Below are positions 10,153 to 61,170 of a DNA stretch of 64,000 nt, in pieces; within the stretch, counting starts at the first letter, position 1, and each line of letters opens with the position of its first letter. The notes below the pieces were generated by a model, which saw only the letters and a list, made by a program, of their open reading frames with translations, was not told the DNA's origin and made no database searches. The stretch is from an uncultured delta proteobacterium (GTDB taxonomy: Bacteria; Myxococcota_A; Polyangia; Polyangiales; Polyangiaceae). The translations under genes were made by a program, and so were the position numbers. The stretch is taken from contig CAVXQJ010000001.1 of the NCBI GenBank assembly GCA_963763745.1, positions 194,431 through 258,430 on the forward strand, in the 5' to 3' direction.

Positions 10153-10154
10153 CG

Positions 10155-10853
10155 TTACGGCGCCAGAGTAAGTACGCTATCGGCTTTCTGCACGGAAAAG
10201 TAAAGTCCTCGGGCGTAGAGGCGACGGCGGTCTTTCTCGGGCAAATCCCCGCTCCGCGCGCGCACGGCGTGGTCGAGCAAGATTCCGGCGGTGACGCTGA
10301 CGTTGAGGCTGTCCGTGAACCCGCGCATCGGCACGCGGACGCGGCGCGTGCACGCGGCGGCGAGCTCTTCGGTGACGCCGTCGTGCTCGTTTCCGAGCAC
10401 GAGCGCGAGACGCGGGATGCTCGCGAGATCCTCGGGCAAGAGCTCGCCGGCGGGATGCGCCGTCACGAGCTCGAAATCGTTTTTCAAGACGCCGACGACG
10501 TCGGCCACGCTCGCGTGACGCACGACATCGACCCATTTCGCGGAGCCGCGCGCGACCGAGCCCGCGGTGAGAAAACGCTCTTGTCGCTCGACGACGTGGA
10601 TCGTTTGGACGCCGAGCGCCTCGCACGATCGCACGACTGCCGCGCCGTTGAACGGATCGTGCGGCGCATCGAACACGACGCTCACGCTCGCGAGGCGCGC
10701 TTCGATCACTTCGAGGATGCGCGCGCGTCGCCGCTCGAGCACGAGCGGCTCGAGAAGCCGAATCACGCGCTCGGGATCTTCGCGCTCGATCCGCGCAATT
10801 TTGCGGGGCACGAGTGCATCTGCATCCATGACTTCCGCGGTGCTTCGCCGCAT
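10155..10853 (-). CDS. SpoU/TrmH-family RNA 2'-O-methyltransferase
   Basis: C-terminal 232 aa of track ORF 10155..12269: [23 protein letters not shown]...[10 protein letters not shown]...[12 protein letters not shown] (SPOUT motifs); ATG at 10853; stop adjacent to grpE start. Confidence 0.8.
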
Positions 10854-10955
10854 AGGGTCTCGCTTACCTGTTTCTTTCGCAAACAGTGGGCGAAAACGGC
10901 TCGAAGGCGTACGCTTTTGTGGCCTCTCGTCCGTCCAACGGACCAGGTTTCCCCG

Positions 10956-15377: not shown

Positions 15378-18300
15378 GCCGTTCATCATAGCGGCGTTGT
15401 TGGTCGCGTTCCTGATTCACTCCGTGCTCGCGCACGCGGGCGTGCCTTTGTCCGTCACGCCGCTGCCCGCGCCGGAGCTACCGCCGATCAACGCAGCGAC
15501 CGTGCAAGTACCGTCGCCCGCGCCGGATCTGAGCGCGTACGAAGGAAAGCCCGTGCGCGCGGCGGAGGTCGTCTTCGACGAGGATCCGTGGGACGACATC
15601 AAGCCGCGCCCGCTTCGCATGGTGCACATCGGCGATCCGTTTCGCGCGGAGATTGCTCGCACCGCGATGCTCGAAGCGCTCGCCAATGGGCTCGCGGGAA
15701 ACGCGAAGGTGAACGTCTTCAGCGAAGGCGACGGCGTGCACATCCGCGTCCACGCGATTCCACGTCGCGTCATCGACGGTCTGCGCGTCGAGCTCCATCG
15801 CGCGCAAGTCGACCGCGAAGAAATTCTCCACGAGTCGCAGCTCGAGGAGGGCGGCGAAATTCTCGGCAGCGAGATCGCGGCGCGCAAAAAGCGAATCGAG
15901 GTCGTCCTCGCGCGGCACGGCTTCCCGCAAGCGCAAGCGGAGATCTCGACGCGCGGAACCGACACCGAGGGCCACGTGCTCGTGCTCCTCGACGTGAACG
16001 TCGGACAACCGCGCAAGGTCGCGCGCCGCATCTTTTATCCGTTCGGCGCGAAGCCCGCGGACCTCGAGCCGTTCACGAAGCAATACGACATCGACGAGGG
16101 CGATCGCATCGACGAGGCCGCGCTCCAGCAAGCCGATCTCGCGCTCGAAAACAAATTGCGCGCGGCCGGTTGGTACGAAGCCGCGGTGAAGCACGACATC
16201 GTGCTCGTCCAATACGCGAGCGGCGCCGTCATCACGCTCCGCGTTCGCATCGACAGCGGCCCGCGCTACTTCACGCGCTTCGACGGCAACGCGCACTACG
16301 ACGCCGACGCCCTCACGAGCGCGCTCGCGCTCGAGTCCGATCCCGACACCGGCGAGCAACACCTCGCCGACAAGATTCGTCGCTTCTACGTCGCGCGCGC
16401 GTTCCTCGACGTGATCGTCACGAGCGAGCTCCGCGGGAAACCGACGGACGAGTCACGCTACCTCGTCCTCCACGTTCGCGAAGGGCGCCGCACCGCGGTC
16501 ACCGCGCGGCAGTACCCGTGCGTGCGCGATCAAGACATCGCGCATCTCGACGCGGGCGGGCCAAGCTCGGCGTCGGCAATCGGACGCGAGATCGACAGCT
16601 TCCTCGACGAGGATCTCCCCGGCGCGGACTTCGTCTCCGATCCCGATCCGCGCGCCATCGATCGCGATCTCGGCGGTGGAGGCGGGACGCGCTCCGCGCC
16701 GATCGATCTCGATCCGAGCGCGACGTACTCGCCCGAGACGTACGACAAGGGCATTCAGCACGTGCAGGAGCTCTATCGCAACGAGGGCTTCATGAGCGCG
16801 CTCGTCGGGCCCGTTCAAGTCATGCGCCGCCAATGCGATCCGCACTCGCCGCCCGGACGCTGCGTGCCAATGCCGTTCACGCAGCAGCTGCCGGAGGCGT
16901 GCAATTACGATCGCAGCGGGCTCCCCACGCCGGTCGCGCCGCTCGATGCGAGCTTCACGTGCACGCCCGATCCCACGCACGGCGTCGAGTGCGAGCCCGC
17001 CGTGCGCCTTCGCATCCCGATCCGACTCGGGCCGCGCACGTCGCTCTCGGACGTCGCGTTCTTCGGTGCAAAATCGATCAGCGAAAAAGAGCTCGCAGAC
17101 TCCGCCGCGCTCGACCTCGGCAAGCCCGTCAGCACGCTCAAGGTCGACGAGGCGCGCCGGCGCGTCGTCGATCGTTATCGCGAGGAAGGGTTCTACTACG
17201 CGGACGTGAAGTACGACGTCCAACGCTCGCTCGACAACACGCAGGCGCGCGCGCGCTTCGACGTGAACGAGGGCGATCGCGTCGTCGTCACGCAGATCGT
17301 GATTCAGGGAAACGCGATCACGAACGAGTCGGTCATTCGCCGGCGCGTCGCGCTCAAGATCGGCGAGCCGTTTCGCACGAGCGACGTGCGCAAGACGCAA
17401 GAGCGCATCGCGACGCTCAACGTCTTCACGAGCGTCAGCGTCGTCTTGCAAGACGCGCAGGTCCCGCAAAAAAGAAAGACGGTCATCATCACCGTGTCGG
17501 AGAAGCCGACGCAGTACCTCGAGCCGTCGCTCGGTTTCTCGACCGGTGAAGGCGCGCGCGGCTCGCTCGAGTACGGCTACACGAACCTCTTCGGCAGCGC
17601 GATCAGCGCCGTCATTCGTGCGCGCGTCTCGTACCTGCCCGATTTTCTGATTTCGGATCCGACCATCCTCCAGAATTTCCAAAAGCTCAGCGTCGGCGAT
17701 CGCATCGCGTATCGCGTCACGCTCTCGCTCGGCTTCCCCGACATCGGGCTCGGGCCCGACGTCCGCGCGAACCTCGACGGCGTGTATCTGCAGGACGTCG
17801 AGCGCTACTTCATCATCGACAAGGCGGCGTTCATTCCGACCGCGGTTTTCCGGCCGATCAAGCAACACGCCTTCGCGCTCACGGTGAGCGCCGAGTACAA
17901 CAACCTCAACGTCTTCAACAACCAGTCACCCGCCGAAGCCGTGGCGCTCAGCGGCGGCAACCTCGACGTGCAGCGCTTGCTTCGCGCACCCGCGGGTCAG
18001 AGCGCGGTGCTCTCGCAGCGACTCTTGTGGACGTGGGACCGCCGCGACAACGCGTTCAACGCACACAAAGGAACGTTCTTCAGCCTCAACGCCGAGCACG
18101 TGAACTGGTGGCCGCTCGGCGTCCCGGCGAACGAAACCATTTGCACGATCTGCTCGAACCTCAACCAGGTGCCGCTCTTGCCGCAGACGGTCGCGCCGAC
18201 GCCGGGACACTTTCTCAAGCTCGGCGAGACGTTCTCGGGATATTTCCCGCTGCCGTTCTACAAAAAGATCACCGTCGCCGCGACGCTCCGCATCGGCGCG

Positions 18301-18733
18301 ATCGTTCAGCTCGCGAGCGGCTCGACGACGTATCCCGATCGCTTCTACTTCATGGGCGGCATCGACTCGCTGCGCAGCTACCTGCAAGACAGCATGATGC
18401 CGCAGGACGCCGCCGACCAGATCGACGAAGAAGATCATCACACCGGGCCAGGTCGCCATTCGCGGCGGCAACCTCCTCGTGAATCCGCGCGTCGAGCTTC
18501 GCATTCCCATCACGGGTCCGCTCGAGACGGTGCTCTTCTTCGACACGGGAAATCTGTGGCAGGACGCGTCGTACATCTTCAACAACGGAATCTCGTTCCG
18601 CGCCGCCGTCGGCTCCGGTATTCGCGTGCAAACGCCCGTGGGGCCGATTGCGCTCGACTATGGAATCAACCTCACGCGTCAGGAGGCGTACGAGGATTTC
18701 GGCGCGCTCAATTTCGCCATCGGTCTTTTTTAG
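15364..18733 (+). CDS. Omp85/BamA-TamA family outer-membrane protein with POTRA repeats (~1120 aa); apparent +1 frame disruption near 18440-18450
   Basis: TTG start 15364 with signal peptide; POTRA-like repeats; Cys-rich insertion; C-terminal strands and terminal F are in the +1 frame (track ORF 18479..18733: VELRIPITGPLETVLFFDTGNLW...AIGLF); joining needs removal of one base from a short GGG/CC run. Confidence 0.75.
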
Positions 18734-19836
18734 AAGAAACGTCGGAGCACGACGCCGGCGATCGCGCCGCCCGCGACGAGCCACGTCGAGTTGACGCGAA
18801 AGCGGAAGAGCACGACCGCGCCGACGATGGCGATGATCGCGGTAGGCACGTCGACGATGGCCGCGACGGCGAGCTGCACGGTGACCACCGCCATCAGTGC
18901 GACGGACGCCGCGCTCACGCCGTCGAGAAACGCGCTGGCGCTCTTCGAGCTTCGGATGCGCGCGAGGAGCGGTCGTGTCAGAGCGACGAGCGCGAAGCCC
19001 GGAAGAAAAATCGCAATCGTGGATACGATCGCGCCCGGCACGCCGCCCACGAGATAACCGATGAACGTCGCGCTCGTGAACACGGGGCCCGGCGTGACTT
19101 GACCGACGGCGACCGCGTCGAGGAGCTGCGCTTCGGTGAGCCAATGGAGTCGCACGACGAAATCGTCGCGCAAGAACGCGAGCAGCACGTAGCCGCTCCC
19201 GAACACGAGCGCGCCGATCTTCAAGAACGCGAGGAACAGTCCGAGCAAGCTCGCGTGCGCGGCGGTCGTCGCGATCGTGGGCGCGACGATCACCGCGCGC
19301 GATGCGTTCGGATCCTTCGCGCCACGCGCGACGGTGGTCGCCGCGCCGGACGCGAGCAAAATCCAAAGCGGCGTCACGCCGAGCGCGGATGCGATCGCCG
19401 CACCCAAAGCGACCGCACCGAGCCACCACGAACCCTTCACCGCTTTCGGCGCGAGGCCCGCGAGCGCTTGCGCGATCACGCCGATCACGATGGGCTTCAC
19501 GCCGTAGAGCACACCCGCCATCTGCGGCAGCGATCCGAATCGCGCGTACGCCCATGCGAGCGCGAGCACGATCAACGCGGCAGGCGCGATGAAGCACACA
19601 CCACCGAGCACGAGCCCGAGGAAGCCGGCGCGCTCGTACCCGATGTAGATCGCCATCTCCGTCGAGCTCGGACCCGGGATGAGATTCGACGCTGCGAGCA
19701 ATTCGAGAAACCGCTCGTGCGTCAGCCATTTTCGGCGACGAACGAATTCGTCCTCCATGATCGCGATGTGCGCGGCGGGTCCGCCGAATGCGGTCAGCCC
19801 GAGCCGCAAAAACGCGCGGGCGACTTCCCCCCTCAC
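18730..19836 (-). CDS. chrA: chromate transporter ChrA (CHR family)
   Basis: FLRLGLTAFGGPAAHIAIMEDEFV...LIPGPSSTEMAIYIGY and a second CHR repeat; start assigned to GTG 19836-19834, which overlaps the TAG of the upstream DUF962 gene (TAGTG). Confidence 0.8.
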   Translation of the reverse strand: MRGEVARAFLRLGLTAFGGPAAHIAIMEDEFVRRRKWLTHERFLELLAASNLIPGPSSTEMAIYIGYERAGFLGLVLGGVCFIAPAALIVLALAWAYARFGSLPQMAGVLYGVKPIVIGVIAQALAGLAPKAVKGSWWLGAVALGAAIASALGVTPLWILLASGAATTVARGAKDPNASRAVIVAPTIATTAAHASLLGLFLAFLKIGALVFGSGYVLLAFLRDDFVVRLHWLTEAQLLDAVAVGQVTPGPVFTSATFIGYLVGGVPGAIVSTIAIFLPGFALVALTRPLLARIRSSKSASAFLDGVSAASVALMAVVTVQLAVAAIVDVPTAIIAIVGAVVLFRFRVNSTWLVAGGAIAGVVLRRFF

Positions 19837-20201
19837 TACGCGGGCTGCGGCGCGTGCGTGCCGTTCGTCTTTTTCGAGACGTGGCGCGCGTGCTCGCGCA
19901 CTTGGTAGATGCGCTTCTTCGTCAAGAATTCGATCCACTCGACGGTGATCCACACGGGGCCGATCGCGAGGTATCGCAGGTCGCGCGTGAACGACGGCTT
20001 TTTGCCTTCGAACACGTGGCCGACGAATTGAAAGGCCCAGCCCGTGCTGAACATGCCGAGCCCGACAGGCGGCGCGATGGGAATGACCGGCAGCGACGCG
20101 ACGATCATCGGAATGCCGATCATGTGGCATGCCTTGTTGACCGGATGCAGGTGGTCTTCGTGGTATTGGCGCATGTAGTCGTGGAAGGACATCGTCGACA
20201 T
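19836..20201 (-). CDS. DUF962 (Mpo1-like) small membrane protein
   Basis: MSTMSFHDYMRQYHEDHLHPVNKACHMIGIPMIVASL...; protein-like ORF in an alternate frame relative to the Arg-rich extension of the chrA track ORF. Confidence 0.7.
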   Translation of the reverse strand: MSTMSFHDYMRQYHEDHLHPVNKACHMIGIPMIVASLPVIPIAPPVGLGMFSTGWAFQFVGHVFEGKKPSFTRDLRYLAIGPVWITVEWIEFLTKKRIYQVREHARHVSKKTNGTHAPQPA

Positions 20202-20227: not shown

Positions 20228-20315
20228 GGGCTTTAGGCTTTGGGCTTTAGGCTTTAGGAGAAGAGCGATCACGCTTCTGCTTCTTGCCAAAGCCCAAAGC
20301 CCAAAGCCCAAAGCC
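20228..20315. repeat. ~88-nt near-perfect palindrome: (GGGCTTTR)x4 - 28-nt spacer - (AAAGCCC)x4
   Basis: Left arm 20228-20258 is GGGCTTTAGGCTTTGGGCTTTAGGCTTTAGG; right arm 20287-20315 is its reverse complement as heptamer tandem repeats; sits in the divergent region between the DUF962/chrA and tldD starts. Confidence 0.85.
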
Positions 20316-20326
20316 AAGAGGGCGCA

Positions 20327-23211: not shown

Positions 23212-23876
23212 TGAGGTTCGGGCTCATCGGAGACATTCACGCGGAGGACGAGCGACTCGCCGCGGCGCTCGAGATTTTTCGCAAAGAGAAAACCGACGCT
23301 GTCTTGTTCGTCGGCGACATCGCCGACGGGACGGGCGATCTCGATCGGTGCTGCGCGCTACTCCGCGCGAGCGGCGCGCTCGGCGTGCGCGGCAATCACG
23401 ATCGCTGGCTCGTCGAGGACACGATGCGCTCGCTCAAGAATGCGCACACGCGCGATGGGGTCGAGCCCGCGACGCTCGCATTCCTCGAAGCGCTCGATGC
23501 GACGCGCGAGATCGAGACGAAGCTCGGCGCGCTCCTCTTGTGTCACGGCGTCGGCGAGAACGACATGGTCCGCGTGCACGCGGACACCGACGGCTACGCG
23601 CTCGAAACGAACGACGACCTCGCCGCGCTGCTCGTCGCGAATCGCCATGCGCTCGTCGTCGGCGGTCACACGCACGAGCGCATGGTGCGGCGGTTTCACG
23701 CGAGAGCGCTGAGGCTCGAGGGAGACGCGTCGCTCGTGTTCGTGAACCCCGGCACGCTGGCCGGAGATGCGACGCCGTGTTGTGCGATTTTGGATTTCGA
23801 CGAAGAGCGCGTTCGCTATTTCGAGCTCGAGGACCCGAGCACGCCGCTTCCTTCGGAGATCATTCGATTGCCGTGA
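23211..23876 (+). CDS. metallophosphoesterase (YfcE-like calcineurin-fold)
   Basis: MRFGLIGDIHAEDERL...LFVGDIADG...GNHD...GGHTH motifs; ATG overlaps the pmbA stop (TGATG). Confidence 0.75.
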   Translation: MRFGLIGDIHAEDERLAAALEIFRKEKTDAVLFVGDIADGTGDLDRCCALLRASGALGVRGNHDRWLVEDTMRSLKNAHTRDGVEPATLAFLEALDATREIETKLGALLLCHGVGENDMVRVHADTDGYALETNDDLAALLVANRHALVVGGHTHERMVRRFHARALRLEGDASLVFVNPGTLAGDATPCCAILDFDEERVRYFELEDPSTPLPSEIIRLP

Positions 23877-23897: not shown

Positions 23898-24875
23898 TCA
23901 CTTCGGTTTGCGGGCGAGGTCTGCGTCCTGTTCGTTTTGAGCCAAGATTGACTGGACCTGTTGTCGTGAGATTCGGAGCTTGCGTGCTGCAGCGGTTCGA
24001 TTCCCCGCGCACGCATCGACCATATGACGAACCGCGAGCTTCCGTGCATGCGTGACGGCCGCGTGCAAACCCGTTGTCGCCTCCGCAAGGAATTCCGCGA
24101 CCTCGCCCTCCGAAACGCTCTTCAGCCGCGTGCCACTCCGATGTCGTTGCGGGGGTAGACTCAGCACGCGCGATGCGAAGTCATCGACGTTCAAATTCTC
24201 TTTCGGCACGTACCGCGCGTTGAGGGCATCGGCGCGCGCCTCCGCGTCGTAATCGTCGAGAGCGGTCAGTACAAATGCAGGTCCATCAAACGCGCGTCCG
24301 CGCGCGTCGGGTGTGCGTGCATACTCGAGAAAGAGCAACCCGCTTCGGTCCGACGAGCTGCCGAGTCGCACATCGACGATGAGTACGTCGAGCCCGCCGT
24401 GCTCCAAGCGCGCAACGGCACCCACGAGGTCCGCCGCTTCCGCAATCACCACGTCGAGCTCGGCAAGTCGCCCCACGCTTCGAATGATGCGAACGAGCGA
24501 CGAGCGAAAGCCTGAGTCGTCATCGACGATGAGCATTCGCAATGGATGCGTGCTGGGCCCCTCTCGCCTCACGACGCGATTGGACAGAGAATCCACGCGC
24601 GGTGCAAGACAGAGCCTCGAAATGAGGGAGACGATGTGGGACGAGCGGTGATGATCGCTCGGTGACAGCGCGATAACCCGCGCACTCGGAACGCCTAGCT
24701 CCACACGCGCGTGCTCGCTCAAAGGCACAGTCGTGACAATCACATCGGCGCGAATGCTCGAAGGAACGTCGTCCAACCGATGCGCTTCCGTCACGTGTGC
24801 GCCGATCTGTCGCAGCGCCTTTGCAATCCAGCTGCGTTCGTGCGCTCCACGCAAAACGAGGACGTTCACATCCAC
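23898..24875 (-). CDS. response-regulator-like protein: degenerate receiver + canonical receiver + Fis-type HTH, no sigma54 AAA+ module
   Basis: Second domain MLIVDDDSGFRSSL...LDVLIVDVRLG is receiver-like; C-terminus GNRTAAARKLRISRQQVQSIL is a Fis/NtrC-type HTH; GC noticeably lower than flanks. Confidence 0.65.
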   Translation of the reverse strand: MDVNVLVLRGAHERSWIAKALRQIGAHVTEAHRLDDVPSSIRADVIVTTVPLSEHARVELGVPSARVIALSPSDHHRSSHIVSLISRLCLAPRVDSLSNRVVRREGPSTHPLRMLIVDDDSGFRSSLVRIIRSVGRLAELDVVIAEAADLVGAVARLEHGGLDVLIVDVRLGSSSDRSGLLFLEYARTPDARGRAFDGPAFVLTALDDYDAEARADALNARYVPKENLNVDDFASRVLSLPPQRHRSGTRLKSVSEGEVAEFLAEATTGLHAAVTHARKLAVRHMVDACAGNRTAAARKLRISRQQVQSILAQNEQDADLARKPK

Positions 24876-25020
24876 TCATCGGTGCGCGCAGACCGAAGTT
24901 GCGTCTCCGATGCACTCACCTGAACGAGCGTGCGGAAAATATTTTTGCGCTCCTCAAGCATCTCGAACGGTGATGAACCTGAATCGTGGACGGACGTGCG
25001 TTCACGAAACGAGGAGCCCC

Positions 25021-26802
25021 ATGAAACGCATACGCGTGGAGAGAGAAAGACTTGTCGCAGCCGTTCGCATCGGCGGAGTCATGGTCGCTGCGGCGACCTT
25101 CTGCAATGCGACTTGCAACTCGCCACCGACGGGAAACCTGGAGGTGCTCTCCAACGGGACTCCCGCGTTCGATTCAGCCACCGGCTTTGCGCAGTCGTTC
25201 TTCTCGAGCGACAACGCACTCGGGCCAGCGCAAGAGATCGCGCTTTCATCGAGTCGTGTCGTCGTTCGGTACTCCGACTCGTTCTCGACTTTCAATTCCG
25301 ATCCGACCGTGAATAGCTCGCAAGAGGAGGTGCTCGTTCTGACGCGCGACCCGATCGAATATCGCCACACGTTGGAATCGATCGTTGGGCCCGATCCAAC
25401 AATCAACCACACCGATCCGGGCCGGTTCTTGGAATGGGCCGCGCAGACGTTTGCGCCAGGTGACACGTGGCCGATAACGGACACGACGCTCGAACCGAAA
25501 GGCGTGATGCTTCCCAATGCAATCAGCTTTCCTTATCCAAATGCTTCTACGTCGCCCCAAACTGATTGGCTCATGACGCAAGCGATGTTTACCGGCTCGG
25601 CATCAACGCCCTTCGTCGGGCCGGCTGGATCGTTTGGCGGAACCATCAAAGGCCTCAGCGTCATGCGGCGTGGGGTGTGTTCCTTTGAACAGTCCATTAC
25701 CGATGCTTTGTCATCGATCACGGACATCCCACTACACGGCGACATCGGGATTGCCGGTTATGACATCTCCGGCGGCCTGGCGTCGTTCGTGTCCTACGCA
25801 CCCAATGGTGGGTTCGTCGTCAGCGCTCAGATCGACGGCTTCGAGCCTTTGTTGCCGCCGCTTCCCCCAATTCCCACGACCTTTCAAATCCTCGTCAATT
25901 ACACGTATAACTATGCTCTTGACGATGGCATTTTTGCCGTCGAGCCAACCCAAAACACGTACAACGTGTCCGAGGTATCGGGTATTGCGGGCGGCCAATT
26001 TTTCGGCGTTTTGAACAAGACGGTTCCAGACGACGTGAAGCTCAGTGCGCTCGAAGGAAAGCGGGGATCGTTCAAAGGCGGACAGGCGCAACCCATTCCA
26101 GCTCTGTTTGCAGGTGGAGCGAGCACCGTATGCTCGGACACGAGCAAGCAAAGACCGTCGAGTTGCTTCACGTTGTGTGCGTCCTCGGACACCGTCGACA
26201 TGACGAATCCAGGCACGTTCCCGCCGGAGGAGGATCTCGGCGATCCGACCACGATCGATCCACCGAGCTGGCATGACAGTGCGTTCTGCGGATTTCCAGC
26301 GGCGGCGATTGCGGGGATCACCACGTCAGCCGCTTCGACCTATTCAGGAATGACGCCAACCGGTCCAACGGACTTGAGCAACGCGGTGCTTGAACCGCTG
26401 AACGGCGACACGACCAAGCTCCATAACTTCCGGTGCAACTTCCATCCACGGTACGAGGCCGGTACGACGAGCACGACAGATCCTCTGACGACCGGGCACC
26501 CGTTCAACATCGGCGAGAAACCGCTCCTTACGGGGCCGCCGGTGTGCGAGGTCATCGTACGCATCAAGCGTATCAATGTATTTCCAGATGCCGCAGAGGC
26601 CGTGTTCTTCGACGGGCCAGATCTGCAGCATGTCGATCCGATCGAGTTCGGTGGTACGACACTCACCGGCCTCGGCAACGAAGCATTCGCGCTATTTCTC
26701 GGCTTGCAGACGATAAGTCCAGGTTCGTCTGCGCAATTGTGCTCCCGCCATGCGGAAACAAACCTCGTCACGAGATCGTGTGCACATGCGCTCTTGCATT
26801 GA
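25021..26802 (+). CDS. hypothetical secreted protein (593 aa)
   Basis: ATG 25021 preceded by GAGGAG 5 nt upstream; signal peptide; GC ~58% versus ~70% genome; no recognisable domain. Confidence 0.55.
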   Translation: MKRIRVERERLVAAVRIGGVMVAAATFCNATCNSPPTGNLEVLSNGTPAFDSATGFAQSFFSSDNALGPAQEIALSSSRVVVRYSDSFSTFNSDPTVNSSQEEVLVLTRDPIEYRHTLESIVGPDPTINHTDPGRFLEWAAQTFAPGDTWPITDTTLEPKGVMLPNAISFPYPNASTSPQTDWLMTQAMFTGSASTPFVGPAGSFGGTIKGLSVMRRGVCSFEQSITDALSSITDIPLHGDIGIAGYDISGGLASFVSYAPNGGFVVSAQIDGFEPLLPPLPPIPTTFQILVNYTYNYALDDGIFAVEPTQNTYNVSEVSGIAGGQFFGVLNKTVPDDVKLSALEGKRGSFKGGQAQPIPALFAGGASTVCSDTSKQRPSSCFTLCASSDTVDMTNPGTFPPEEDLGDPTTIDPPSWHDSAFCGFPAAAIAGITTSAASTYSGMTPTGPTDLSNAVLEPLNGDTTKLHNFRCNFHPRYEAGTTSTTDPLTTGHPFNIGEKPLLTGPPVCEVIVRIKRINVFPDAAEAVFFDGPDLQHVDPIEFGGTTLTGLGNEAFALFLGLQTISPGSSAQLCSRHAETNLVTRSCAHALLH

Positions 26803-26869
26803 TCCATCGACGCAATCTGCTGGCACCGTCGACCGAAATAGCCCATCTTCATCTCATCGGTGACGGACG

Positions 26870-27646
26870 ATGCGAATGGCAAATATCTTGCGCGCGCGAG
26901 TTGCGACGCTAGGTTGCGTCGTACTTTGGGCCTGCGGTGGTATCACCACCGACGGTGACGCTAGCGTCGATGGCAGTAGTGGAGATGGCGGCTCACTCGA
27001 TGCGTGCATCGCCGCTGACGACGCGTATGTCATCTGCAACGGCAACCAAGGATGTTTTCCTCCTACCGCGCAAGGCGCTCATAGCGCTTGCGAGAATTGC
27101 TTGTCCGGGCCGAACACACCCAGCCAGCCTGGTTTGTGCATCTCGGCGACCACGAGCGTTCCGCAGGGCATTGCCACCGATGGTCAACTGTACGTCGTTG
27201 CGGAGCCTGCCGCACCGAACGCGTGGGATCCATTCCCGTTCGAAGTCGGCGAGCTCTTTGCCAACAACGGCGGCGCGCCCCAGGTACGTTACGCGGATTG
27301 GAAGCCATGGAGTGGCGCACCGCTTCCCTCCCCAACGACCTGCCCGACCTTCGTCAATTTTCGCATTTGCGGCGGCAATTGCGGGAGCTGCAACACCAAC
27401 GAAACATGCACCGGGCGTTCACCCGATCATCCGTGGGGTCTTTGCGTACCTACGCTAGCTGGTTGCGACAATAACGGCGCGGATGGGGGTTGGATTGGAT
27501 GTGAGGCTGGCACCACGTGCCTTGCATTCCAGACTTCGACGGACGGTCAACCCATTGCGGACAAGCACGGGTTCTGTTTTTCCGGTTCAGCATGTCAAGA
27601 GGCGCAAGCGAACTACGCAGGCGGCGTTGTCTGCAATGGCCAATAA
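26870..27646 (+). CDS. Cys-rich secreted lipoprotein
   Basis: Lipobox VVLWAC; about 30 cysteines in CxxC/CxC patterns; low-GC island. Confidence 0.55.
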   Translation: MRMANILRARVATLGCVVLWACGGITTDGDASVDGSSGDGGSLDACIAADDAYVICNGNQGCFPPTAQGAHSACENCLSGPNTPSQPGLCISATTSVPQGIATDGQLYVVAEPAAPNAWDPFPFEVGELFANNGGAPQVRYADWKPWSGAPLPSPTTCPTFVNFRICGGNCGSCNTNETCTGRSPDHPWGLCVPTLAGCDNNGADGGWIGCEAGTTCLAFQTSTDGQPIADKHGFCFSGSACQEAQANYAGGVVCNGQ

Positions 27647-27675
27647 GACATTTGCCGGCAACTGAGGTGATGATC

Positions 27676-28260
27676 ATGAAGACGTCTCGGCGCGCGCTTG
27701 TCGCGAGCATCTTGCTCGCCGGTTGTGGAGGTTCGGTCGCTTTGGTGGATGGCGGCGTATCGGACAGTGCCAGCAACGACGCGCTGGTTGTCGATGCGAA
27801 TGTGGACGCACCGAAGGATGCCGATGCTTCGACCTCCGACGGCAATCCGAAGCCCTTCGATGGTGGCTGCAACACGGTCGTCAACAGCTCTCCATTCACC
27901 GTTGACATCACACAGACGACCGTGACTCCACCAACACCACAAGGCGGCTCGATCGCGAACGGAACGTACTATCTCGAAACGATCAACGATTATGGAAGTA
28001 TCAGTGGGACGCTCGCATTTGGCGCGCGTGTCACCGTCGCGCTTCAGGGAACGGACTTCGAGTTCGTGCTCGACCTGTCCAACGTGACGTCACGTGGGTC
28101 CGAGACGCTCACGACGAATGGCACGAACTACAATGCGAGCGAGAGTTGCCCGACCGTCACGACCGTTGGAAGCGGAACGTACACGGCGACTCCGAGTGAG
28201 CTTCGCCTTTACGAGAATGCTGACGGCGGCGTGCTAGAAAGCATTTACGCGCACCAGTGA
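27676..28260 (+). CDS. hypothetical lipoprotein
   Basis: GAGGTGA 7 nt upstream of ATG; lipobox ILLAGC; Ser/Thr/Asn-rich mature part. Confidence 0.55.
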   Translation: MKTSRRALVASILLAGCGGSVALVDGGVSDSASNDALVVDANVDAPKDADASTSDGNPKPFDGGCNTVVNSSPFTVDITQTTVTPPTPQGGSIANGTYYLETINDYGSISGTLAFGARVTVALQGTDFEFVLDLSNVTSRGSETLTTNGTNYNASESCPTVTTVGSGTYTATPSELRLYENADGGVLESIYAHQ

Positions 28261-28304
28261 CGTACTCGAGTGACCGCCCACGCGACACGCGTTAACGTGA
28301 CGGT

Positions 28305-28895
28305 GTGACCCCGACGAACGCGTTGGTTTGTGCCGCCATCGGCGCGGTGCTCGGCGCGGCGCTGACGTGGAGCAAGCCGGGCGAGCGCGCGCCGTGGTCG
28401 CAGACGCACGTCGTCGGCGGCGCGTATCGCGGGCAGGAGATCGTCATCATTGCGAGCCCTGCGCGCGTTCGGCTCGCTGCGGCGATCGCGTGGGGAGTCA
28501 TCGTCGTCAGCTGCGTTCACGCGGCGATGCTCGCGCTCGAAATGATGTCCACGACGATAACGACCTCGGGTGGTGGTGATTGCGCGACGTTTCCGTGCGA
28601 CAGCCAACCGCGCATCATGGTCGTGAGGAATGCGCCGCCAGAAGTGCTGCTCGTCGACCTGCTTTGCATCATCGCGACGGGCACGTTCATCGGCGCGCTC
28701 GGTAGTTGGGCGATGCACGCGCCACACGATTCGGCGAGCGCGCGGCGCATCAGCCCGCTCGTCGCGAGCGCAATGCTCGTCGTGCTCGCGCTCGCACGCG
28801 GCCCGGTGACGCCGATCTTCTTCGGCTTCTCCGTGCTGCTCGCGGCGTGCGTCGCCGTGTCCGCCGCGTTCGTCGCGTTCGCGCGAATGAAGTAA
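28305..28895 (+). CDS. hypothetical membrane protein (about 4 TM helices)
   Basis: GTG start; hydrophobic helices (LVCAAIGAVLGAAL, AAAIAWGVIVVSCV, LCIIATGTFIGALGSW, MLVVLALA...); moderate support only. Confidence 0.4.
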   Translation: MTPTNALVCAAIGAVLGAALTWSKPGERAPWSQTHVVGGAYRGQEIVIIASPARVRLAAAIAWGVIVVSCVHAAMLALEMMSTTITTSGGGDCATFPCDSQPRIMVVRNAPPEVLLVDLLCIIATGTFIGALGSWAMHAPHDSASARRISPLVASAMLVVLALARGPVTPIFFGFSVLLAACVAVSAAFVAFARMK

Positions 28896-28918
28896 CGCGC
28901 GCAGTGATCGCCGCTCGA

Positions 28919-29293
28919 TTACCGTGACGCAACTTGCCAATCCGCGTACGCACTCGCCATGGCGGCGGCGGCTTCTTCCGGACGCACTCCTCCGACGCCG
29001 GTACAGAGTCCGGGACAGTAGATGGATCGCACGTTCTCGGGATGCGACGCCGCAACACGCAACACTGCGCGCATCGCGTCGCGCACGAGCTCCTGCACTT
29101 TCGGAATCGCCGCTGCGTAAGCGGCATCGATCCCTCCGTCCATCAAACCATCGGCGTTCGCGGGCGAAACGACCGTGTTCTCTGCGAGTGACACGAGATC
29201 GCCCGAGAGGACGCTCACTGCGGGAAAGCGCGCGAACGCCTTCTTCAAGGCTTCGACGACGTCAGCATCCAGGTCGACGAATGTGAGCTTCAT
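28919..29293 (-). CDS. mini macro-domain-like protein (124 aa)
   Basis: VLSGDLVSLAENTVVSPANADGLMDGGIDAAY resembles the macro-domain ADP-ribose-binding N-terminus, and SIYCPGLCTGVGGVRPEEAA resembles the C-terminal loop, but the central ~50 aa of a canonical macro fold are absent. Confidence 0.45.
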   Translation of the reverse strand: MKLTFVDLDADVVEALKKAFARFPAVSVLSGDLVSLAENTVVSPANADGLMDGGIDAAYAAAIPKVQELVRDAMRAVLRVAASHPENVRSIYCPGLCTGVGGVRPEEAAAAMASAYADWQVASR

Positions 29294-29822
29294 GTCGTCT
29301 TACGCATTCTCGTCGACATCGCTTTCGTTCTCGCTTCCCGTAACGAAAAAGCGATCGAGGTATTCGCCGGGCTCGAGATCGCTCTGACGAATCAGTGAGA
29401 AGACCTCGGCGCCGGGCCCGACGGTCCATAATCGTTTGCCTCCGCTTCCGCGAGGCGGATGGCTTCATCGAACGAAGAAGCGCGCCAAAGCGTCACGCGC
29501 TCCTCGTAGGCGGCCGACGGAAGCAGGAAGACACATCGAACCGAATACCAAGGCTGCTTCACCCGGTCGACGCGGCGGGGCTCGAACCCGCAAGCCTCTC
29601 GGCCGGAGTTTCATCGATGCACGTCCACGCGGACGCGCGCCGATAGAACTCCGTGTGTCTGCCATTTCCACCACACGTCGATGGAAATCAAGACGCGTCG
29701 TGGGAATGTTCCTGACGCTGGCGTCCGTGAAGATCGCGATGAACAAGTTCTCGTGGCCGCTTTACGTCAAGCACGAGTCCGCCGGAGGCGGACTTGGGAT
29801 GTCGTCAATCGATGCGTTCTTC

Positions 29823-29871
29823 GCCACCCCGAACGGAGTCGGAGTCGGGGTCGGAGTCGGGGACGGAGTCG
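29823..29871. repeat. hexanucleotide tandem array (GGAGTC)x7 with GGGGTC/GGGGAC variants
   Basis: GGAGTCGGAGTCGGGGTCGGAGTCGGGGACGGAGTCGGAGTC read directly; lies just 3' of the phosphoesterase gene (minus strand). Confidence 0.85.
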
Positions 29872-29891
29872 GAGTCGGAATTCGATGCGAA

Positions 29892-30812
29892 TCAATCCCC
29901 CGGATCCGACCCCGACACGTTGTCCGCCTCCATCGACTGCTTCCCGTCGAAACGCACGACGTCCACGTCGACGCGATCGCCCGCGACGTCGATCACCAAG
30001 AAGTGATGAAACGCATGCTCGGGCCCAGCGTGATTGAGCGGCGCGCCCAAGCCACCCGTGATGTACCCGCGGATGCCGCCTTGGTTCACGCGGATGAATT
30101 GATGCACGTGGCTCGAGAGGATCAGCTCGACGCGCGCGTGTTGGAACATCGCGAGCGCGGCGTCGGAGTCCGCCTCGCCCTGCGCGCCGTCTTCGTCCAT
30201 GCCGTGCGACGACACGCCGTTGTGCGCGAGCGGTTTGTGCATGCCGACGAAGATGTGGCGCACTTCGGGATTGCCGCGCGCGTCGTCGAGATCTTTCTCG
30301 AGCCACTCGAGCTGATCTTTTCCGAAGCCGGCTTGGCTGACGTTGTCGAGCGCGATGAAGTGGACGTGGCCGGGGAGGTTCGCCGAGTAGACGACTTTGT
30401 CGTCGAGCAGGCTGCGAATTGGCGTGTACTTCGTGCCGAGGAAGTTCTCGCGGAATTTTTTCTTTGCGCCGTTCTCGCCGATGCCGAGCGCGCCGAGGAG
30501 CTTCACTTCGTGGTTGCCGAGCGCGGGATAGAACGGGACGCCGCCGAGGTTGTCGAGCTCCGCGCGGAAGTGCGCGTCGAACTGCGGCGTGAGCTCCATG
30601 TCGCCGAGAAAGAGAAACGCGCTCGCGCCGCGCGCCTTCGCTTCGCGAAACGCCCACGGGAGAACGTGCGCTGCATCGTCGCGCGAGTCGCCGCCCGCGA
30701 TGAAGCGAACGTGCCCGTCGGGAACGGGAACCGCCACGACGGGCGGAGCCTTCGCCTCGGGCCCACACGCGAGGACGATCGCGAATGCGGCAAACGTCGT
30801 AACCGGTTTCAT
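29892..30812 (-). CDS. metallophosphoesterase lipoprotein (calcineurin-like)
   Basis: MKPVTTFAAFAIVLACG lipobox; GDxxD/GNHE/HxH phosphoesterase motifs; ATG 30812 overlaps the stop of the FGE gene (ATGA). Confidence 0.75.
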   Translation of the reverse strand: MKPVTTFAAFAIVLACGPEAKAPPVVAVPVPDGHVRFIAGGDSRDDAAHVLPWAFREAKARGASAFLFLGDMELTPQFDAHFRAELDNLGGVPFYPALGNHEVKLLGALGIGENGAKKKFRENFLGTKYTPIRSLLDDKVVYSANLPGHVHFIALDNVSQAGFGKDQLEWLEKDLDDARGNPEVRHIFVGMHKPLAHNGVSSHGMDEDGAQGEADSDAALAMFQHARVELILSSHVHQFIRVNQGGIRGYITGGLGAPLNHAGPEHAFHHFLVIDVAGDRVDVDVVRFDGKQSMEADNVSGSDPGD

Positions 30813-31639: not shown

Positions 31640-31710
31640 GCCCGGAGGCTAGCACACCGTAAAAAAGGGCATTTGGAGATAGGCGTCCTTTTTGCTTGGC
31701 GGAGAATCCG

Positions 31711-34326
31711 ATGATGAAGAAGAGCTTCTTTCTTGGATGCGCGGCGCTCGTCACGGCGGCTGCGCCTTCGCTCGCGCAGACGCGCGCGGCGGTGATCGAT
31801 CCGAACATCGTGCGCGCGCTCGACACCGGGCTCACCGGTCCCTTCGTGCGGAGCGCGCCCGTCCCTGGAAAAACGACCGTGCTCATCGAGCTCGCGTCGC
31901 CCGCGACGCCGGCGATTTCGTCCATGCTCGCGCGTTCGGGCGTGAAGCTCGCGTTCGCGGAAGGAAAAGCGCTCGCGTACGACAGGTTCGTTCCCGCCGA
32001 CGTCACGCCGCAGAGCCTCGCTGCGCTCGCGAAGATGAGCGAAGTGAAACGCGTCACGCTCGCGAGCGCGCGCGGTCCGCTCCCGCTCGATCAATCCGCC
32101 ACGCTCATGCGCCTCGCCGATGCGCGCGGCGCGCGCGCGGATCTCGACGAGCTCGACGGCGACGGAACGCTCATCGCCGACATCGACTCGCTCGTCGATC
32201 CGTTCCAGCCCGCGTTCTTCAAAGGCGACGCTGGTTACTTCGATTGGATCGATCAGGACGGCGATGGAGTCTTCACGCCGGGCAAGGACGCGATCGATCT
32301 CGATCAAAACGGAACGGGCGACGCGAGCGAAGTCGCCGAGCTCATCGAAGCCAAGCAAGTCGACTACTACGGCAAAGACACGGGCGCGCGCGCGAGCGAC
32401 GCGTTCGATCCGTCCGTGGATTTTCTCTTCATCGACTCGAACGGAAATGGCGCGCGCGATTTCGGCGCATCGAACGGGTTCGACGACACGACGCCCGCGT
32501 TCGGCGAGCCGCTCTTCGTGCCCGACGACGTGAACAAGAACGGCACGCTCGACGTCGGCGAGCGCGTCGTTCGGCTCGGCACGTCGAAGTTCCGAAAGAT
32601 CTACGTCAACCTCGATTACCCGCCGTACACGGCGAACCACACGTACGTGCGCGGCGTCGATCTCTCCGCGTCGAAGATCGATTACTCGAGCGGCGGGCTC
32701 GAAGGATTTCCCGATGCGTTCCACGCGACGGGCGTGAACACGATTTTGGTTGGCGACGTTCCGCTCGTCGGGCGCAGATGGGTCGGCATCGCGCCGAACG
32801 CGGACGTGGAAGTCGCGTGGGACGTGGAGCAAACGCAGCAGGGACTGCCGGTGAAAGGGCTCACGTGGGCGCTTCAAGACAAGCCCGACGTCGGTCTCTT
32901 CGAGCTCGCCGTGTGGACGAGCGTTCCCGTCGATGGAACCGACGCGCTCTCCACGATGATCGACACCGCGGTGAACAAAGGAGCCTTCACCGCCACGTGC
33001 CCGACGGGCGATCAAGGCTCCGCGCTCAAGCACGCGCACGTCGACCTCGCGCCGGGCGCGCAACAGGCGATGCATTGGACCCTTCCGGCGAAAGACAAAG
33101 CCGGACAAGGTCCGCTCTCGTACGTCGAGCTCTCGATGGACATTCGCGGCGCCGAGCCCGAAGCGGTGATGCTCTCCGGTCCGACCGGCGAGAGCGCCAA
33201 CATGATGCAATTTCTCATGGGCACGCTCTCGACGGGCGACTCCTATTACGTGACGACGCAGCAGACGACGCGCGGCACGTGGATGTACGACGTGATCCTC
33301 TACGTCGACACGAACCAACCGCCGTTCCCGACGGGCACGTGGAGCGTCAGCGTGACGGGCAACGCGTCGACTGCGATCACGGTCGATGGCTTCGTCGCCG
33401 ACGACAAATCGAGCTGGGCCGTCGGTGCTGCGTGGGACGAAGCGATCGCGACGAACGCGGGCACGATCGGCGCGCCTGCGACGGCGGATCATTGCATCGC
33501 GGTGAACGCGGCGCCCGATCACGTCTCGACGCCCGCCGAGCCTTGGTACGATTTGCATTTCTATCCCGAGTACGACGTCGCGCCGAACTACACCGAGACG
33601 CAAGGACAGATTCGCGCGTACTCGCCGCGCGGCCCGCGCATCGACGGCATCATGAAGCCCGACATCACCGCGCCCGACAATCCGTGGGTCGCGAACGAGT
33701 GGATGCCGTCGCTGAAATATCCGTACGGATCGTATTCGGTGTTCGGTGGAACGTCGGGCGCGTCTCCGCACGCGACGGGCGTCGCGGCGCTCCTCGCGCA
33801 AACGGGTTTGCACGGCGACGCCGCGCGCGACGCGATTCGCACCGGCGCGATCGTCGACTCGGACACGGGCGCGGTTCCGAACGGCGATTATGGATTCGGA
33901 CGATTGAGCGCGGCGGGCGCGCTCGGCGTCGCGAACGCGGGCGTGGAGCCTTCGGTGAAGATCAACGTCACGAGCGCGAACACGCAAGCGGGCATCACGC
34001 TGACGCTCGACGCGAAATCGAACGACGGAAACGACGGCGCGCTCCAAGCGAAGTGGGACGATGGCTACGACGGAACATGGGACACGCCTTACGCTGCGAT
34101 AGCAACGCACTCCGTCTCCGCGAACACCCCCGGAAAATATCCGTTCAAGGTGCGCGTGCGAAACGCGGGCGGTCGCGTCGCCGAAGCGGTCGTGTGGGCC
34201 GACGTGACGGACACCGTCGTCACGAGCTCGGGATGCAGCTGCAACACGGCGCCTTCGCGCACGGAGATGGGCTTCGCGGGCTTTGCGCTCGCGCTCGCCG
34301 CCTTCGCGCGCCGCCGCCGCCGTTGA
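31711..34326 (+). CDS. S8-family subtilisin-like serine peptidase with MYXO-CTERM sorting domain
   Basis: AVIDPN Asp motif; GTSGASPHATGVAALL Ser motif; C-terminal GCSC...GFAGFALALAAFARRRRR = MYXO-CTERM; GGAG 7 nt upstream of ATG 31711. Confidence 0.85.
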   Translation: MMKKSFFLGCAALVTAAAPSLAQTRAAVIDPNIVRALDTGLTGPFVRSAPVPGKTTVLIELASPATPAISSMLARSGVKLAFAEGKALAYDRFVPADVTPQSLAALAKMSEVKRVTLASARGPLPLDQSATLMRLADARGARADLDELDGDGTLIADIDSLVDPFQPAFFKGDAGYFDWIDQDGDGVFTPGKDAIDLDQNGTGDASEVAELIEAKQVDYYGKDTGARASDAFDPSVDFLFIDSNGNGARDFGASNGFDDTTPAFGEPLFVPDDVNKNGTLDVGERVVRLGTSKFRKIYVNLDYPPYTANHTYVRGVDLSASKIDYSSGGLEGFPDAFHATGVNTILVGDVPLVGRRWVGIAPNADVEVAWDVEQTQQGLPVKGLTWALQDKPDVGLFELAVWTSVPVDGTDALSTMIDTAVNKGAFTATCPTGDQGSALKHAHVDLAPGAQQAMHWTLPAKDKAGQGPLSYVELSMDIRGAEPEAVMLSGPTGESANMMQFLMGTLSTGDSYYVTTQQTTRGTWMYDVILYVDTNQPPFPTGTWSVSVTGNASTAITVDGFVADDKSSWAVGAAWDEAIATNAGTIGAPATADHCIAVNAAPDHVSTPAEPWYDLHFYPEYDVAPNYTETQGQIRAYSPRGPRIDGIMKPDITAPDNPWVANEWMPSLKYPYGSYSVFGGTSGASPHATGVAALLAQTGLHGDAARDAIRTGAIVDSDTGAVPNGDYGFGRLSAAGALGVANAGVEPSVKINVTSANTQAGITLTLDAKSNDGNDGALQAKWDDGYDGTWDTPYAAIATHSVSANTPGKYPFKVRVRNAGGRVAEAVVWADVTDTVVTSSGCSCNTAPSRTEMGFAGFALALAAFARRRRR

Positions 34327-35741: not shown

Positions 35742-36543
35742 GTGCCCGAAGGCGACTCGATTCACAAGCTCGCGAACGCGCTCACGCGCGCGATCGTTGG
35801 CAAGACCGTCCGCGCCTTCTCCGCGCACACCGTCATGGATCACGTGGCGCGCACGGTCATCGGCGCGAGAGTCGAGAGCGCGACGGCGCGCGGAAAAAAT
35901 CTGCTCGTCGCGTTCGACGACGGCCGCACGCTCCACATCCACTTGCGCATGCTCGGTCGCGTTCGCATCGTCGCGCCGAAACCCGCACCGCGCCGCATGC
36001 CGCAGCTGTGGATCGAATTCGACGACGTCGCCGTGATGGGTTGGAAGATCCCCGTGCTTCGTCTCTTGCGAAAGGGCGCAGCCGAGCGCGTGCCGGAGAT
36101 CGCATCGCTCGGTCCCGATCTCCTCGCGGAAGACTTCGACGAACGCGATGCGCTCGCGCGTTTTCGCGCGAACCCCGATTGCGAAAATCGGCGAAGCGCT
36201 CATGCTCCAGCGCATCGCCAGTGGCATCGGCAACGTCTACAAATCGGAGGTGCTCTTCATCGAGCGCGTCCATCCGCGCGCGCGGGTTCGCGATCTCGAC
36301 GACGCCGCGATCCTCGGGCTCGTCCGGCGCGCACGCGCGCTCCTACGCATGAACGTCGCGCGCCGCGGTCCACGCGTGACGCGCGGCCTCCTCGGCGCGC
36401 GCCACCACGTCTACGAACGCGCTGGCCGTGCGTGCTCGCGATGCCGCACCGCGATCAGCGTGATCCGGCAGGCGAACCGATCGACGTACTTCTGCGCGAA
36501 GTGCCAGGATGGTGCTGCGAAGAGTGGGCGAGCCGGGACTTGA
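35742..36543 (+). CDS. nei: Fpg/Nei family DNA glycosylase (endonuclease VIII-like); frame disruption at the CCCC run near 36174
   Basis: GTG start then PEGDSIHKL (catalytic Pro2/Glu3); H2TH IASGIGNVYKSEVLF and zinc finger CSRCRT...CAKCQ lie in the +1 frame (track ORF 36148..36543). Confidence 0.7.
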
Positions 36544-36597
36544 ACCCGGAGCCAACGGATTAAGAGTCCGCTGCTCTACCAATTGAGCTACTCGCCC
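36525..36597 (-). tRNA. tRNA-Lys (anticodon CUU)
   Basis: Reverse complement GGGCGAGTAGCTCAATTGGTAGAGCAGCGGACTCTTAATCCGTTGGCTCCGGGTTCAAGTCCCGGCTCGCCCA folds as a cloverleaf: 7-bp acceptor, D-arm, anticodon loop CUCUUAA, T-arm GGGTTCAAGTCCCGG. Confidence 0.85.
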
Positions 36598-61080: not shown

Positions 61081-61170
61081 CGGGCGAGACCGAGACGGAG
61101 ACGGACGCAGAGCCGGAGACGGACGCAGAGCCGGAGACGGTGACGGACACCGAGACGGAGACGGGGCGCG
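61081..61170. repeat. hexanucleotide tandem array (GAGACG-like) of about 14 units, with internal 18-nt duplication GAGCCGGAGACGGACGCA x2
   Basis: GAGACCGAGACGGAGACGGACGCAGAGCCGGAGACGGACGCAGAGCCGGAGACGGTGACGGACACCGAGACGGAGACGG read directly, about 85 nt upstream of the RAYT start. Confidence 0.85.

Follow-up and report, generated by a model that had tools for sequence, protein, structure and literature searches.

A probably horizontally acquired, low-GC segment in an uncultured polyangial bacterium carries a predicted operon of exported lipoproteins

The 64,000-nucleotide stretch of DNA analysed here, which we call the window, comes from an uncultured delta proteobacterium of the Polyangiaceae, a soil myxobacterium (GenBank assembly GCA_963763745.1, contig CAVXQJ010000001.1, positions 194,431 to 258,430 of the forward strand), and coordinates are counted from its first letter. 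To the right of its tldD-pmbA genes lies a segment of about 6 kb (23898–29760) with low GC content, which we interpret as a horizontally acquired accessory segment carrying an operon of three exported lipoproteins that would handle lipids; taken whole, we consider this account moderately probable. The segment is atypical in composition and absent from the same locus in three related genomes, two of its core genes recur as a conserved pair in other genomes, and transposases are associated with that pair elsewhere.

RESULTS

A predicted lipoprotein operon is conserved in other genomes

The putative functional core of the segment (25021–28260) consists of three genes that would form one operon:

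25021–26802, plus strand: 593-amino-acid (aa) exported protein, probable lipoprotein of an unnamed family, anchor gene of the operon
26870–27646, plus strand: disulfide-rich lipoprotein CysA, 258 aa (256 aa from the second Met), 20 Cys
27676–28260, plus strand: Ser/Thr-rich lipoprotein ST, 194 aa, lipobox LLAGC

For the 593-aa protein, a word-based search of 5.8 billion clusters yielded seven homologues, and an exhaustive profile search of 1.84 billion representatives retrieved 98 members at E ≤ 1e-3, which we refer to as the 593 family. Most full-length members possess a lipobox, and Cys residues are conserved in the family; both features suggest that the 593-aa protein is located outside the cytoplasm. 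Word-based searching returned 16 homologues of CysA, which is characterized by the motif ICGGNCGxC...CTGRSPxHP[YW]GxC and contains 20 cysteines rather than the roughly 30 counted in a preceding reading made from the letters alone (hereafter the sequence-only reading). Two homologues were obtained for ST, whose conserved domain of about 130 aa is marked by the motifs CNT, PTPxGG and GxYYLT together with a second Cys. A 296-aa protein from a metagenome-assembled genome (MAG) of a Polyangia bacterium, P0121, contains this domain twice in tandem (CNT...PxPxGG...GxYYLT...C...Y[ST]A), and the domain is thus an independent module.

Scanning metagenomes with the CysA alignment identified 20 further loci, while the equivalent scan with the 593-family alignment gave no match. 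A 593-family open reading frame (ORF) is positioned directly upstream of CysA in each of the 14 metagenomic loci for which upstream sequence is available, and a CysA paralogue, CysB, usually follows downstream. The same 593–CysA pairing is present at loci L003, L033 and L039, the order being ST, 593, CysA, CysB in L003, 593, CysA, CysB in L033 and 593, CysA, CysB, ST in L039; at L040, ST and 593 precede a different Cys-rich lipoprotein gene. Homologues of ST with 30–41% identity adjoin 593-family genes in four loci (L001, L003, L039 and L040). Two longer proteins, P0010 (906 aa) and P0091 (818 aa), were considered as 593–CysA fusions and rejected as such: since a lipoprotein signal is found inside each of them, where the two families join, they are better explained as read-through gene calls that themselves document the adjacency of the two genes. 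P0091, the only named family member examined and derived from a Polyangiaceae MAG, additionally carries a C-terminal sorting-like tail. With this protein, the adjacency reaches a distant member of the family. Judged by gene order, CysA is an obligate downstream partner of the 593 family in other genomes, and the genes for the 593-aa protein, CysA and ST constitute a conserved, unnamed lipoprotein operon.

In one metagenomic locus, L044, a protein combining a phage-tail-lysozyme and a B-lectin domain is encoded about 700 bp downstream of 593–CysA–CysB (2966–4189 of that locus, plus strand); it is a possible cell-wall-attacking neighbour, seen at this single locus.

The segment is atypical in composition and lies at a synteny breakpoint

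The window has a mean GC content of 65.4%, with 66.1% in the left and 65.8% in the right flank, and the interval 23898–29760 reaches only 60.6%. The lowest values of the whole 64 kb, 57.5–59.5%, are found in 1-kb windows from 24501 to 27001 (standard deviation of 1-kb windows, 2.5 points). The minimum coincides with the core at 24.5–28.0 kb and the dip is uneven, with 65–67% between 28000 and 29000, where a gene for a membrane protein (termed 4-TM, after the four transmembrane segments given in the sequence-only reading) is located. The GC content at third codon positions (GC3) is 0.67 for the 593-aa gene, 0.62 for CysA, 0.69 for ST, 0.68 for the adjacent regulator gene and 0.70 for a macro-domain gene, compared to 0.85 for the 4-TM gene and 0.79–0.85 for flanking genes. 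In addition, we determined base-composition-normalised tetranucleotide usage in 4-kb windows and correlated each with the rest of the 64 kb. The windows 24001–28000 and 25001–29000 both gave r = 0.80 (mean 0.937, standard deviation 0.030; z = −4.6 and −4.5, respectively) and represent the sole outlier, every other window having r ≥ 0.86. The GC dip described in the sequence-only reading is thereby confirmed, with the corrections that the flanks are at about 66% and not at about 70%, and that the dip is not uniform. An independent short-read assembly in Logan (ERR11594405, 8,044 bp) displays the identical gene order over both junctions, which rules out an assembly chimera.

Two metallophosphoesterase (MPE) genes with native composition border the segment:

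23214–23876, plus strand: MPE1, metallophosphoesterase, left flank, GC3 0.82
29892–30800, minus strand: MPE2, lipoprotein metallophosphoesterase, right flank, GC3 0.84

A scan of species-representative genomes with PmbA identified, as the closest relatives found, three Polyangiaceae MAGs with a PmbA identity of 69–71% (loci L004, L010 and L030). The left flank, comprising two giant ORFs, a gene for a 121-aa protein, tldD and pmbA, is syntenic in all three at 60–80% amino-acid identity. Synteny breaks right after pmbA, and what follows varies among the genomes: MPE2 in L004, MPE2 and then a convergent FGE gene in L010, and MPE1 followed by unrelated genes in L030. None of the genes of the segment is present at the pmbA locus of these relatives.

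In the window, MPE1 follows pmbA, an arrangement shared with L030; MPE1 and MPE2 are found at opposite ends of the segment and in opposite orientation, and the relatives have one of them directly after pmbA. MPE2 runs opposite to its orientation in L004 and L010, and inverting the whole segment would restore the pmbA–MPE2 adjacency. These gene orders mark the DNA just right of pmbA as a site of rearrangement. The two giant ORFs of the left flank (1756 and 1514 aa, 10107–19908, plus strand) share 60–79% identity with their counterparts in all three relatives. Further to the right, the divergent spacer between the 121-aa gene and tldD contains a long hairpin (20228–20320) with four GGCTTT(A/G) copies per arm, 93% complementarity and a loop of 33 nt, which is absent from the corresponding spacer of L010.

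Homologous modules are associated with transposases

L010 and L001 are parts of one 346-kb contig, on which a 593-family copy with 47% identity is located about 140 kb away from pmbA. This copy is accompanied by an ST-family gene and lies among IS66, rve, DDE_3 and resolvase genes. Two DDE_Tnp_1 genes and a Transposase_mut gene are found near the 593–CysA pair in L033, IS91 in L056/L057, an IS21/Mu-like element in L058 and DDE_Tnp_1 in L060; counted together, at least five loci have transposases a few kb or less from the pair. In hosts with 68–71% GC (L001, L033, L043, L044 and L056) the GC3 of 593–CysA is 0.05–0.2 below that of the neighbouring genes, whereas in contigs with 62–63% GC (L003 and L040) the module equals its neighbours. 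This pattern fits repeated transfer from lower-GC lineages. Horizontal acquisition, which the sequence-only reading had proposed on the basis of composition and secreted-protein content, is hence supported on four counts: the atypical composition, the absence of the segment from the locus in relatives, the non-syntenic copy flanked by insertion sequences (IS) in one of them and the transposases at the other loci.

The same data may be read differently, namely as a native, lineage-specific and fast-evolving cluster in which the low GC content results from Ser/Thr/Asn/Cys-rich secreted proteins combined with weak codon bias at low expression. GC content at first and second codon positions is likewise low in the three lipoprotein genes, the window contains no mobility genes or att repeats, and the reduced GC3 of 593–CysA in the five high-GC hosts would fit a family-intrinsic trait. 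The last point is countered by L003 and L040, where the module does not deviate from its neighbours, so that the family as such does not dictate a low GC3. A native origin also does not readily explain why the tetranucleotide signature remains an outlier after normalisation for base composition (z = −4.5), why the regulator and macro genes, whose products are not secreted, share the low GC3, and why the genes are missing from the locus in all three relatives, one of which has the IS-flanked copy elsewhere. We therefore consider a native cluster unlikely and horizontal acquisition the better explanation.

The 593-aa protein may contain a TULIP-like module

At the sequence level, the three lipoproteins resemble nothing that has been named. 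Pfam, NCBIfam and PADLOC gave no match for the 593-aa protein, CysA, ST or the 4-TM protein. Of the 46 aligned members of the 593 family, none could be assigned credibly to a Pfam family (the single hit being one weak Dickkopf_N), and families of the TULIP superfamily (BPI, DUF1439, SMP, P47) were not matched in any of the 46. Likewise, searching PDB sequences with family profiles gave nothing at E ≤ 10 for the 593 family, no match for CysA and a non-significant best match to a lipocalin for ST (E = 0.16).

AlphaFold2 produced an unusable model from eight close homologues alone (predicted local distance difference test, pLDDT, 47), and a 46-sequence alignment was used instead, which resulted in a model of the 593-aa protein with a pLDDT of 87.1 and a predicted template modelling score (pTM) of 0.87. 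The model is a multi-domain chain in which residues of about 226–345 lead from a short helix through five long antiparallel strands into a long, 25-residue helix. Foldseek retrieved no PDB entry at E ≤ 1e-3, and its top matches were YceB (E = 0.022, probability 0.92), LBP, Takeout, SPLUNC1, BPI, latherin and JHBP. By two methods, the best structural matches are almost all TULIP proteins, including P47 and OrfX3. No match was found in BFVD, and the PDB offered neither a whole-chain match nor a structural counterpart for the rest of the chain. We tentatively place a TULIP-like module at residues of about 226–345, the placement following from the topology of the model as the fold search does not report aligned residues. 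The earlier statement that none of the proteins has an assignable function hence holds for their sequences and can be refined by the conserved operon of three genes and by the tentative TULIP-like module in the largest product.

This resemblance invites the question whether the module serves as a secreted weapon in predation or competition, acting as a BPI-like membrane attacker or a lipoprotein toxin with the 4-TM protein or a small partner as immunity protein. Every core product is predicted to be exported, the TULIP-like matches include BPI/LBP as well as P47 and OrfX3 from botulinum clusters, and the module has the accessory and mobile character that weapons often show; moreover, predatory Bdellovibrio uses a TULIP protein together with a small operonic adapter, TipA/TipB (bioRxiv 10.1101/2025.09.09.675085). 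What speaks against such a function is that Pfam, NCBIfam and PADLOC revealed no toxin, nuclease, lipase or pore-former domain, and that the 593 family aligns from end to end, with a C-terminal domain that is conserved and not polymorphic. Furthermore, the module does not come with a conserved gene for cytoplasmic or membrane immunity, the 4-TM protein being a singleton encoded with host codon usage, and the partner proteins are lipoproteins themselves. The pattern of polymorphic toxin/immunity pairs was not observed, and there is no conserved non-exported neighbour over the loci compared. The toxin/immunity set or predation module envisaged in the sequence-only reading hence found no positive evidence, neither as a toxin or defence domain nor as a variable C-terminus or an immunity gene, and we regard a weapon as quite unlikely compared to the lipid-handling operon proposed here.

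The regulator and the right arm of the segment

Upstream of the 593-aa gene, the segment begins with a regulator gene and a divergent intergenic region:

23898–24875, minus strand: response regulator, 325 aa, divergent from the 593-aa gene, GC3 0.68
24876–25020, no strand assigned: divergent intergenic region of 145 bp, read from the sequence

The regulator is composed of an N-terminal part of about 100 aa of no known type, a receiver domain (residues of about 112–213) and a C-terminal Fis-type helix-turn-helix (HTH; residues of about 288–307). Both domains were matched below the Pfam gathering scores (Response_reg, E = 6.8e-6, 26.7 bits versus a cutoff of 30.2; HTH_8, E = 1.6e-3). An alignment with CheY shows counterparts of the DD pair, D57 and T87, which leaves the phospho-acceptor pocket of this divergent receiver intact-looking. 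No Sigma54_activat or AAA domain was matched in Pfam or NCBIfam, and only about 70 residues separate the receiver from the HTH. The regulator shares the receiver pocket with NtrC/Fis-type response regulators, whereas their central sigma-54-interacting AAA+ domain is absent. The domain order is that of ActR/PrrA/RegA (receiver and Fis HTH), from which it differs by the extra N-terminal residues, and it fails the NCBIfam equivalog of that group by a wide margin (17.4 bits versus a cutoff of 250). Hence, what had been termed an unusual regulator appears to be an ordinary-looking receiver with a Fis-type HTH that lacks AAA+. The intergenic region contains an A/T palindrome, AAAATATTTTT, at about 24936–24947, and a GAGGAG ribosome-binding site is located 5 nt ahead of the ATG of the 593-aa gene (25021). 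A promoter scan revealed no sigma-70 consensus, and terminator-like sites occur at chance level.

Downstream of ST, the right arm of the segment comprises the following features:

28305–28895, plus strand: membrane protein (4-TM), 196 aa, 4–5 hydrophobic segments, GC3 0.85, host-like
28919–29293, minus strand: macro-domain remnant, 124 aa, about 48 central residues missing
29300–29562, minus strand: small gene disrupted by a frameshift, weakly similar to DUF4288, immediately upstream of the macro gene
29565–29591, minus strand: tRNA-3′-end-like fragment, hairpin GCGGG-TTCGAGC-CCCGC, then CGCGTCG-A-CC
29834–29879, no strand assigned: (GGAGTC)n microsatellite of 7.7 copies, at the right edge of the segment

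The sequence-only reading had listed these genes correctly apart from the Cys count of CysA, the number of membrane segments and the identity of the small ORF. Its 4-TM protein is indeed a membrane protein, with four to five hydrophobic segments. It is a database singleton and gave no tblastn match in the related loci examined. A 190-aa membrane lipoprotein encoded after the 593 homologue in L001 was considered as its counterpart and rejected, as the two show no similarity. The 4-TM gene is outside the conserved module. In the related loci compared, the regulator, 4-TM and macro genes were not found, the metagenomic loci L041–L060 not having been searched for them.

The macro ORF retains two signature loops, one N-terminal (VVSPANADGLMDGGID) and one C-terminal (PGLCTGVGGV), and passes the gathering score of Pfam Macro (PF01661; 29.7 versus 22 bits), at profile positions 75–118 only. 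Aligned to E. coli YmdB, it covers residues 11–51 and 100–143 and skips 52–99, with an identical split in NCBIfam. It thus shares both signature loops with macro proteins of the MacroD/YmdB and Poa1p-like (Macro_2) types and differs from them by the absence of about 48 central residues and by a frameshifted neighbouring gene; a complete macro fold (about 118–170 residues with an ADP-ribose pocket) is not present in its 124 aa. Since the central residues are missing and the adjacent gene is frameshifted, we interpret this ORF as an internally deleted remnant, and neither as a functional protein, the 'mini-macro' of the sequence-only reading, nor as a new 'mini' class. In the adjacent small gene, two reading frames must be joined, and the joined translation weakly matches Pfam DUF4288 (PF14119; E = 2.6e-3, 18.4 bits versus a cutoff of 27, profile positions 1–45 of 84). 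This is the small ORF that had already been recognized as degraded, and it is a probable pseudogene.

Immediately upstream of this gene, the fragment at 29565–29591 combines a perfect T-arm-like hairpin with a 7-nt acceptor-like strand and resembles the 3′ end of a tRNA-Pro (C1:G72, A73), ...GGGTTCGAGCCCCGCCGCGTCGACC. Two such hairpins exist in the 64 kb, at a chance expectation of about 0.9 per window, the other belonging to a real tRNA. Neither ARAGORN nor Rfam, even at E ≤ 10, calls the fragment, and the window holds no second copy. Possibly it is the relic of an old attachment site, an uncertain lead. The real tRNA, Lys-CTT at 36524–36597 on the minus strand, is the only one in the window, and the composition profile beside it has no island-like features. 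A decayed tRNA-targeting integrative element, that is a prophage or an integrative and conjugative element whose integrase and second att site were lost by rearrangement, would accommodate this fragment (T-arm, acceptor strand, A and CC) at the right edge of the segment, the adjoining pseudogenes and the inversion of the neighbouring MPE2, and is nevertheless highly unlikely in view of a fragment that neither program recognizes and chance alone can supply, the missing repeat copy and the lack of an integrase and of any phage or plasmid similarity.

The (GGAGTC)n array marks the right edge of the segment, as noted before, and lies 13 nt past the stop codon of MPE2, where similarity to the relatives ends. 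An alternative reading of the array as a Ser-Asp coding tail of MPE2 (SDSDS in frame past the stop) was rejected: the MPE2 orthologues stop at the same ...DPGD* and have no array, which therefore lies outside the coding sequence. A second hexamer array of the window, (GAGACG) with about 13 copies at 61086–61164, shows an 18-nt higher-order period. Beyond MPE2, an ORF for an 876-aa protein (31696–34326, plus strand) appears from its translation alone to encode a subtilisin-type peptidase; at its C-terminus, a hydrophobic stretch with a Cys precedes RRRRR in the manner of a MYXO-CTERM sorting signal, and the tail of P0091 is similar.

DISCUSSION

We propose that the accessory segment to the right of tldD-pmbA was most likely acquired horizontally from other Polyangiaceae. 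The three lipoproteins encoded in its core would act jointly outside the cytoplasm, with their lipid tails as membrane anchors. In the 593-aa protein, the central TULIP-like module, a long helix in a curved beta-sheet, may hold a lipid or another hydrophobic ligand, and the small partners CysA and ST might serve as adapters or stabilisers. The divergent receiver–HTH regulator plausibly controls the operon, and the right arm with the frameshifted DUF4288-like gene and the deleted macro gene would represent decaying cargo. Handling of lipids or hydrophobic ligands is, weakly, the best supported of the possible mechanisms; going by the fold model, we regard it as possible, and well short of probable.

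Several observations weigh against this interpretation. The window copy is not accompanied by an integrase or a transposase; no noteworthy repeats, direct or inverted, flank the segment, and a blastn comparison with plasmids and phages returned no match. With a PmbA identity of 69–71%, the three relatives are distant, so that a gain in this genome is inseparable from a loss elsewhere. Part of the GC3 deficit may be a trait of the genes themselves, since the pair lies below its neighbours in most hosts. The regulator is not kept beside the module in other loci, and no structure prediction was obtained for CysA or ST.

Among known elements, the segment resembles small genomic islets and IS-associated accessory cassettes: its composition is atypical, the relatives do not have it at this locus, it is positioned at a synteny breakpoint, homologous cassettes in other genomes are flanked by IS elements, and one edge holds decaying cargo genes. 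The window copy differs from such elements in carrying no mobility gene, direct repeats or confirmed tRNA target. Lipoprotein cargo on mobile, strain-variable cassettes is also known for Myxococcota: SitA-type lipoprotein toxins of myxobacteria, with SitI as immunity protein, are delivered by outer-membrane exchange. In contrast to SitA/SitI, the operon described here lacks both a toxin domain with a variable C-terminus and a neighbouring gene for cytoplasmic immunity. Its three conserved proteins are all exported, and no sequence similarity to anything annotated was detected.

With respect to the protein itself, the TULIP superfamily (BPI/LBP/PLUNC, Takeout/JHBP, SMP, YceB/DUF1439 and P47/OrfX) provides the best fold matches and a helix–strands–helix topology that the central residues of the model appear to fit, and the likeness to YceB extends to the 593-aa protein appearing to be a cell-envelope lipoprotein as well. 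However, there is no sequence-level relationship to the superfamily, and the putative module makes up about 120 of 593 residues between two unmatched domains. The closest functional analogue that we found is TipA/TipB of Bdellovibrio, an operon pair in which a double-TULIP protein is opened by a small beta-sandwich adapter (bioRxiv 10.1101/2025.09.09.675085). Both systems would place a TULIP-type protein beside small exported partners, and the host lineage includes some predators. Unlike TipA, the 593-aa protein has at most one TULIP-like module, and its partners are disulfide-rich and Ser/Thr-rich lipoproteins; the likeness is put forward as an analogy.

By this analogy, 593–CysA(–CysB/ST) could be an unrecognised, IS-carried lipid-handling system built around a new TULIP-containing family that needs a disulfide-rich partner and might, like TipA/TipB, extract lipids from, or insert them into, the outer membranes of prey, of kin or of the cell itself. 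We consider this far-reaching proposal rather unlikely as it stands, including its suggestion of a system confined, as seen so far, to uncultured Polyangiaceae-like bacteria.

At present, the segment is a well-documented small acquired islet, not surprising in kind, which helps annotation and gives structural and functional studies a target. If our interpretation is correct, it represents a new conserved operon of exported proteins that moves between genomes. About 100 members of the family of the large protein can be detected among 1.84 billion representatives; none is annotated, and those with a name all come from uncultured Polyangiaceae. The large subunit would combine a confidently predicted fold, unmatched over the whole chain in the PDB, with a possible lipid-binding module. 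The bacterial TULIP families described so far are few (YceB, P47/OrfX and, recently, TipA), and a mobile TULIP family with obligate partners would, if true, add to what is known of extracytoplasmic lipid handling in Gram-negative bacteria.

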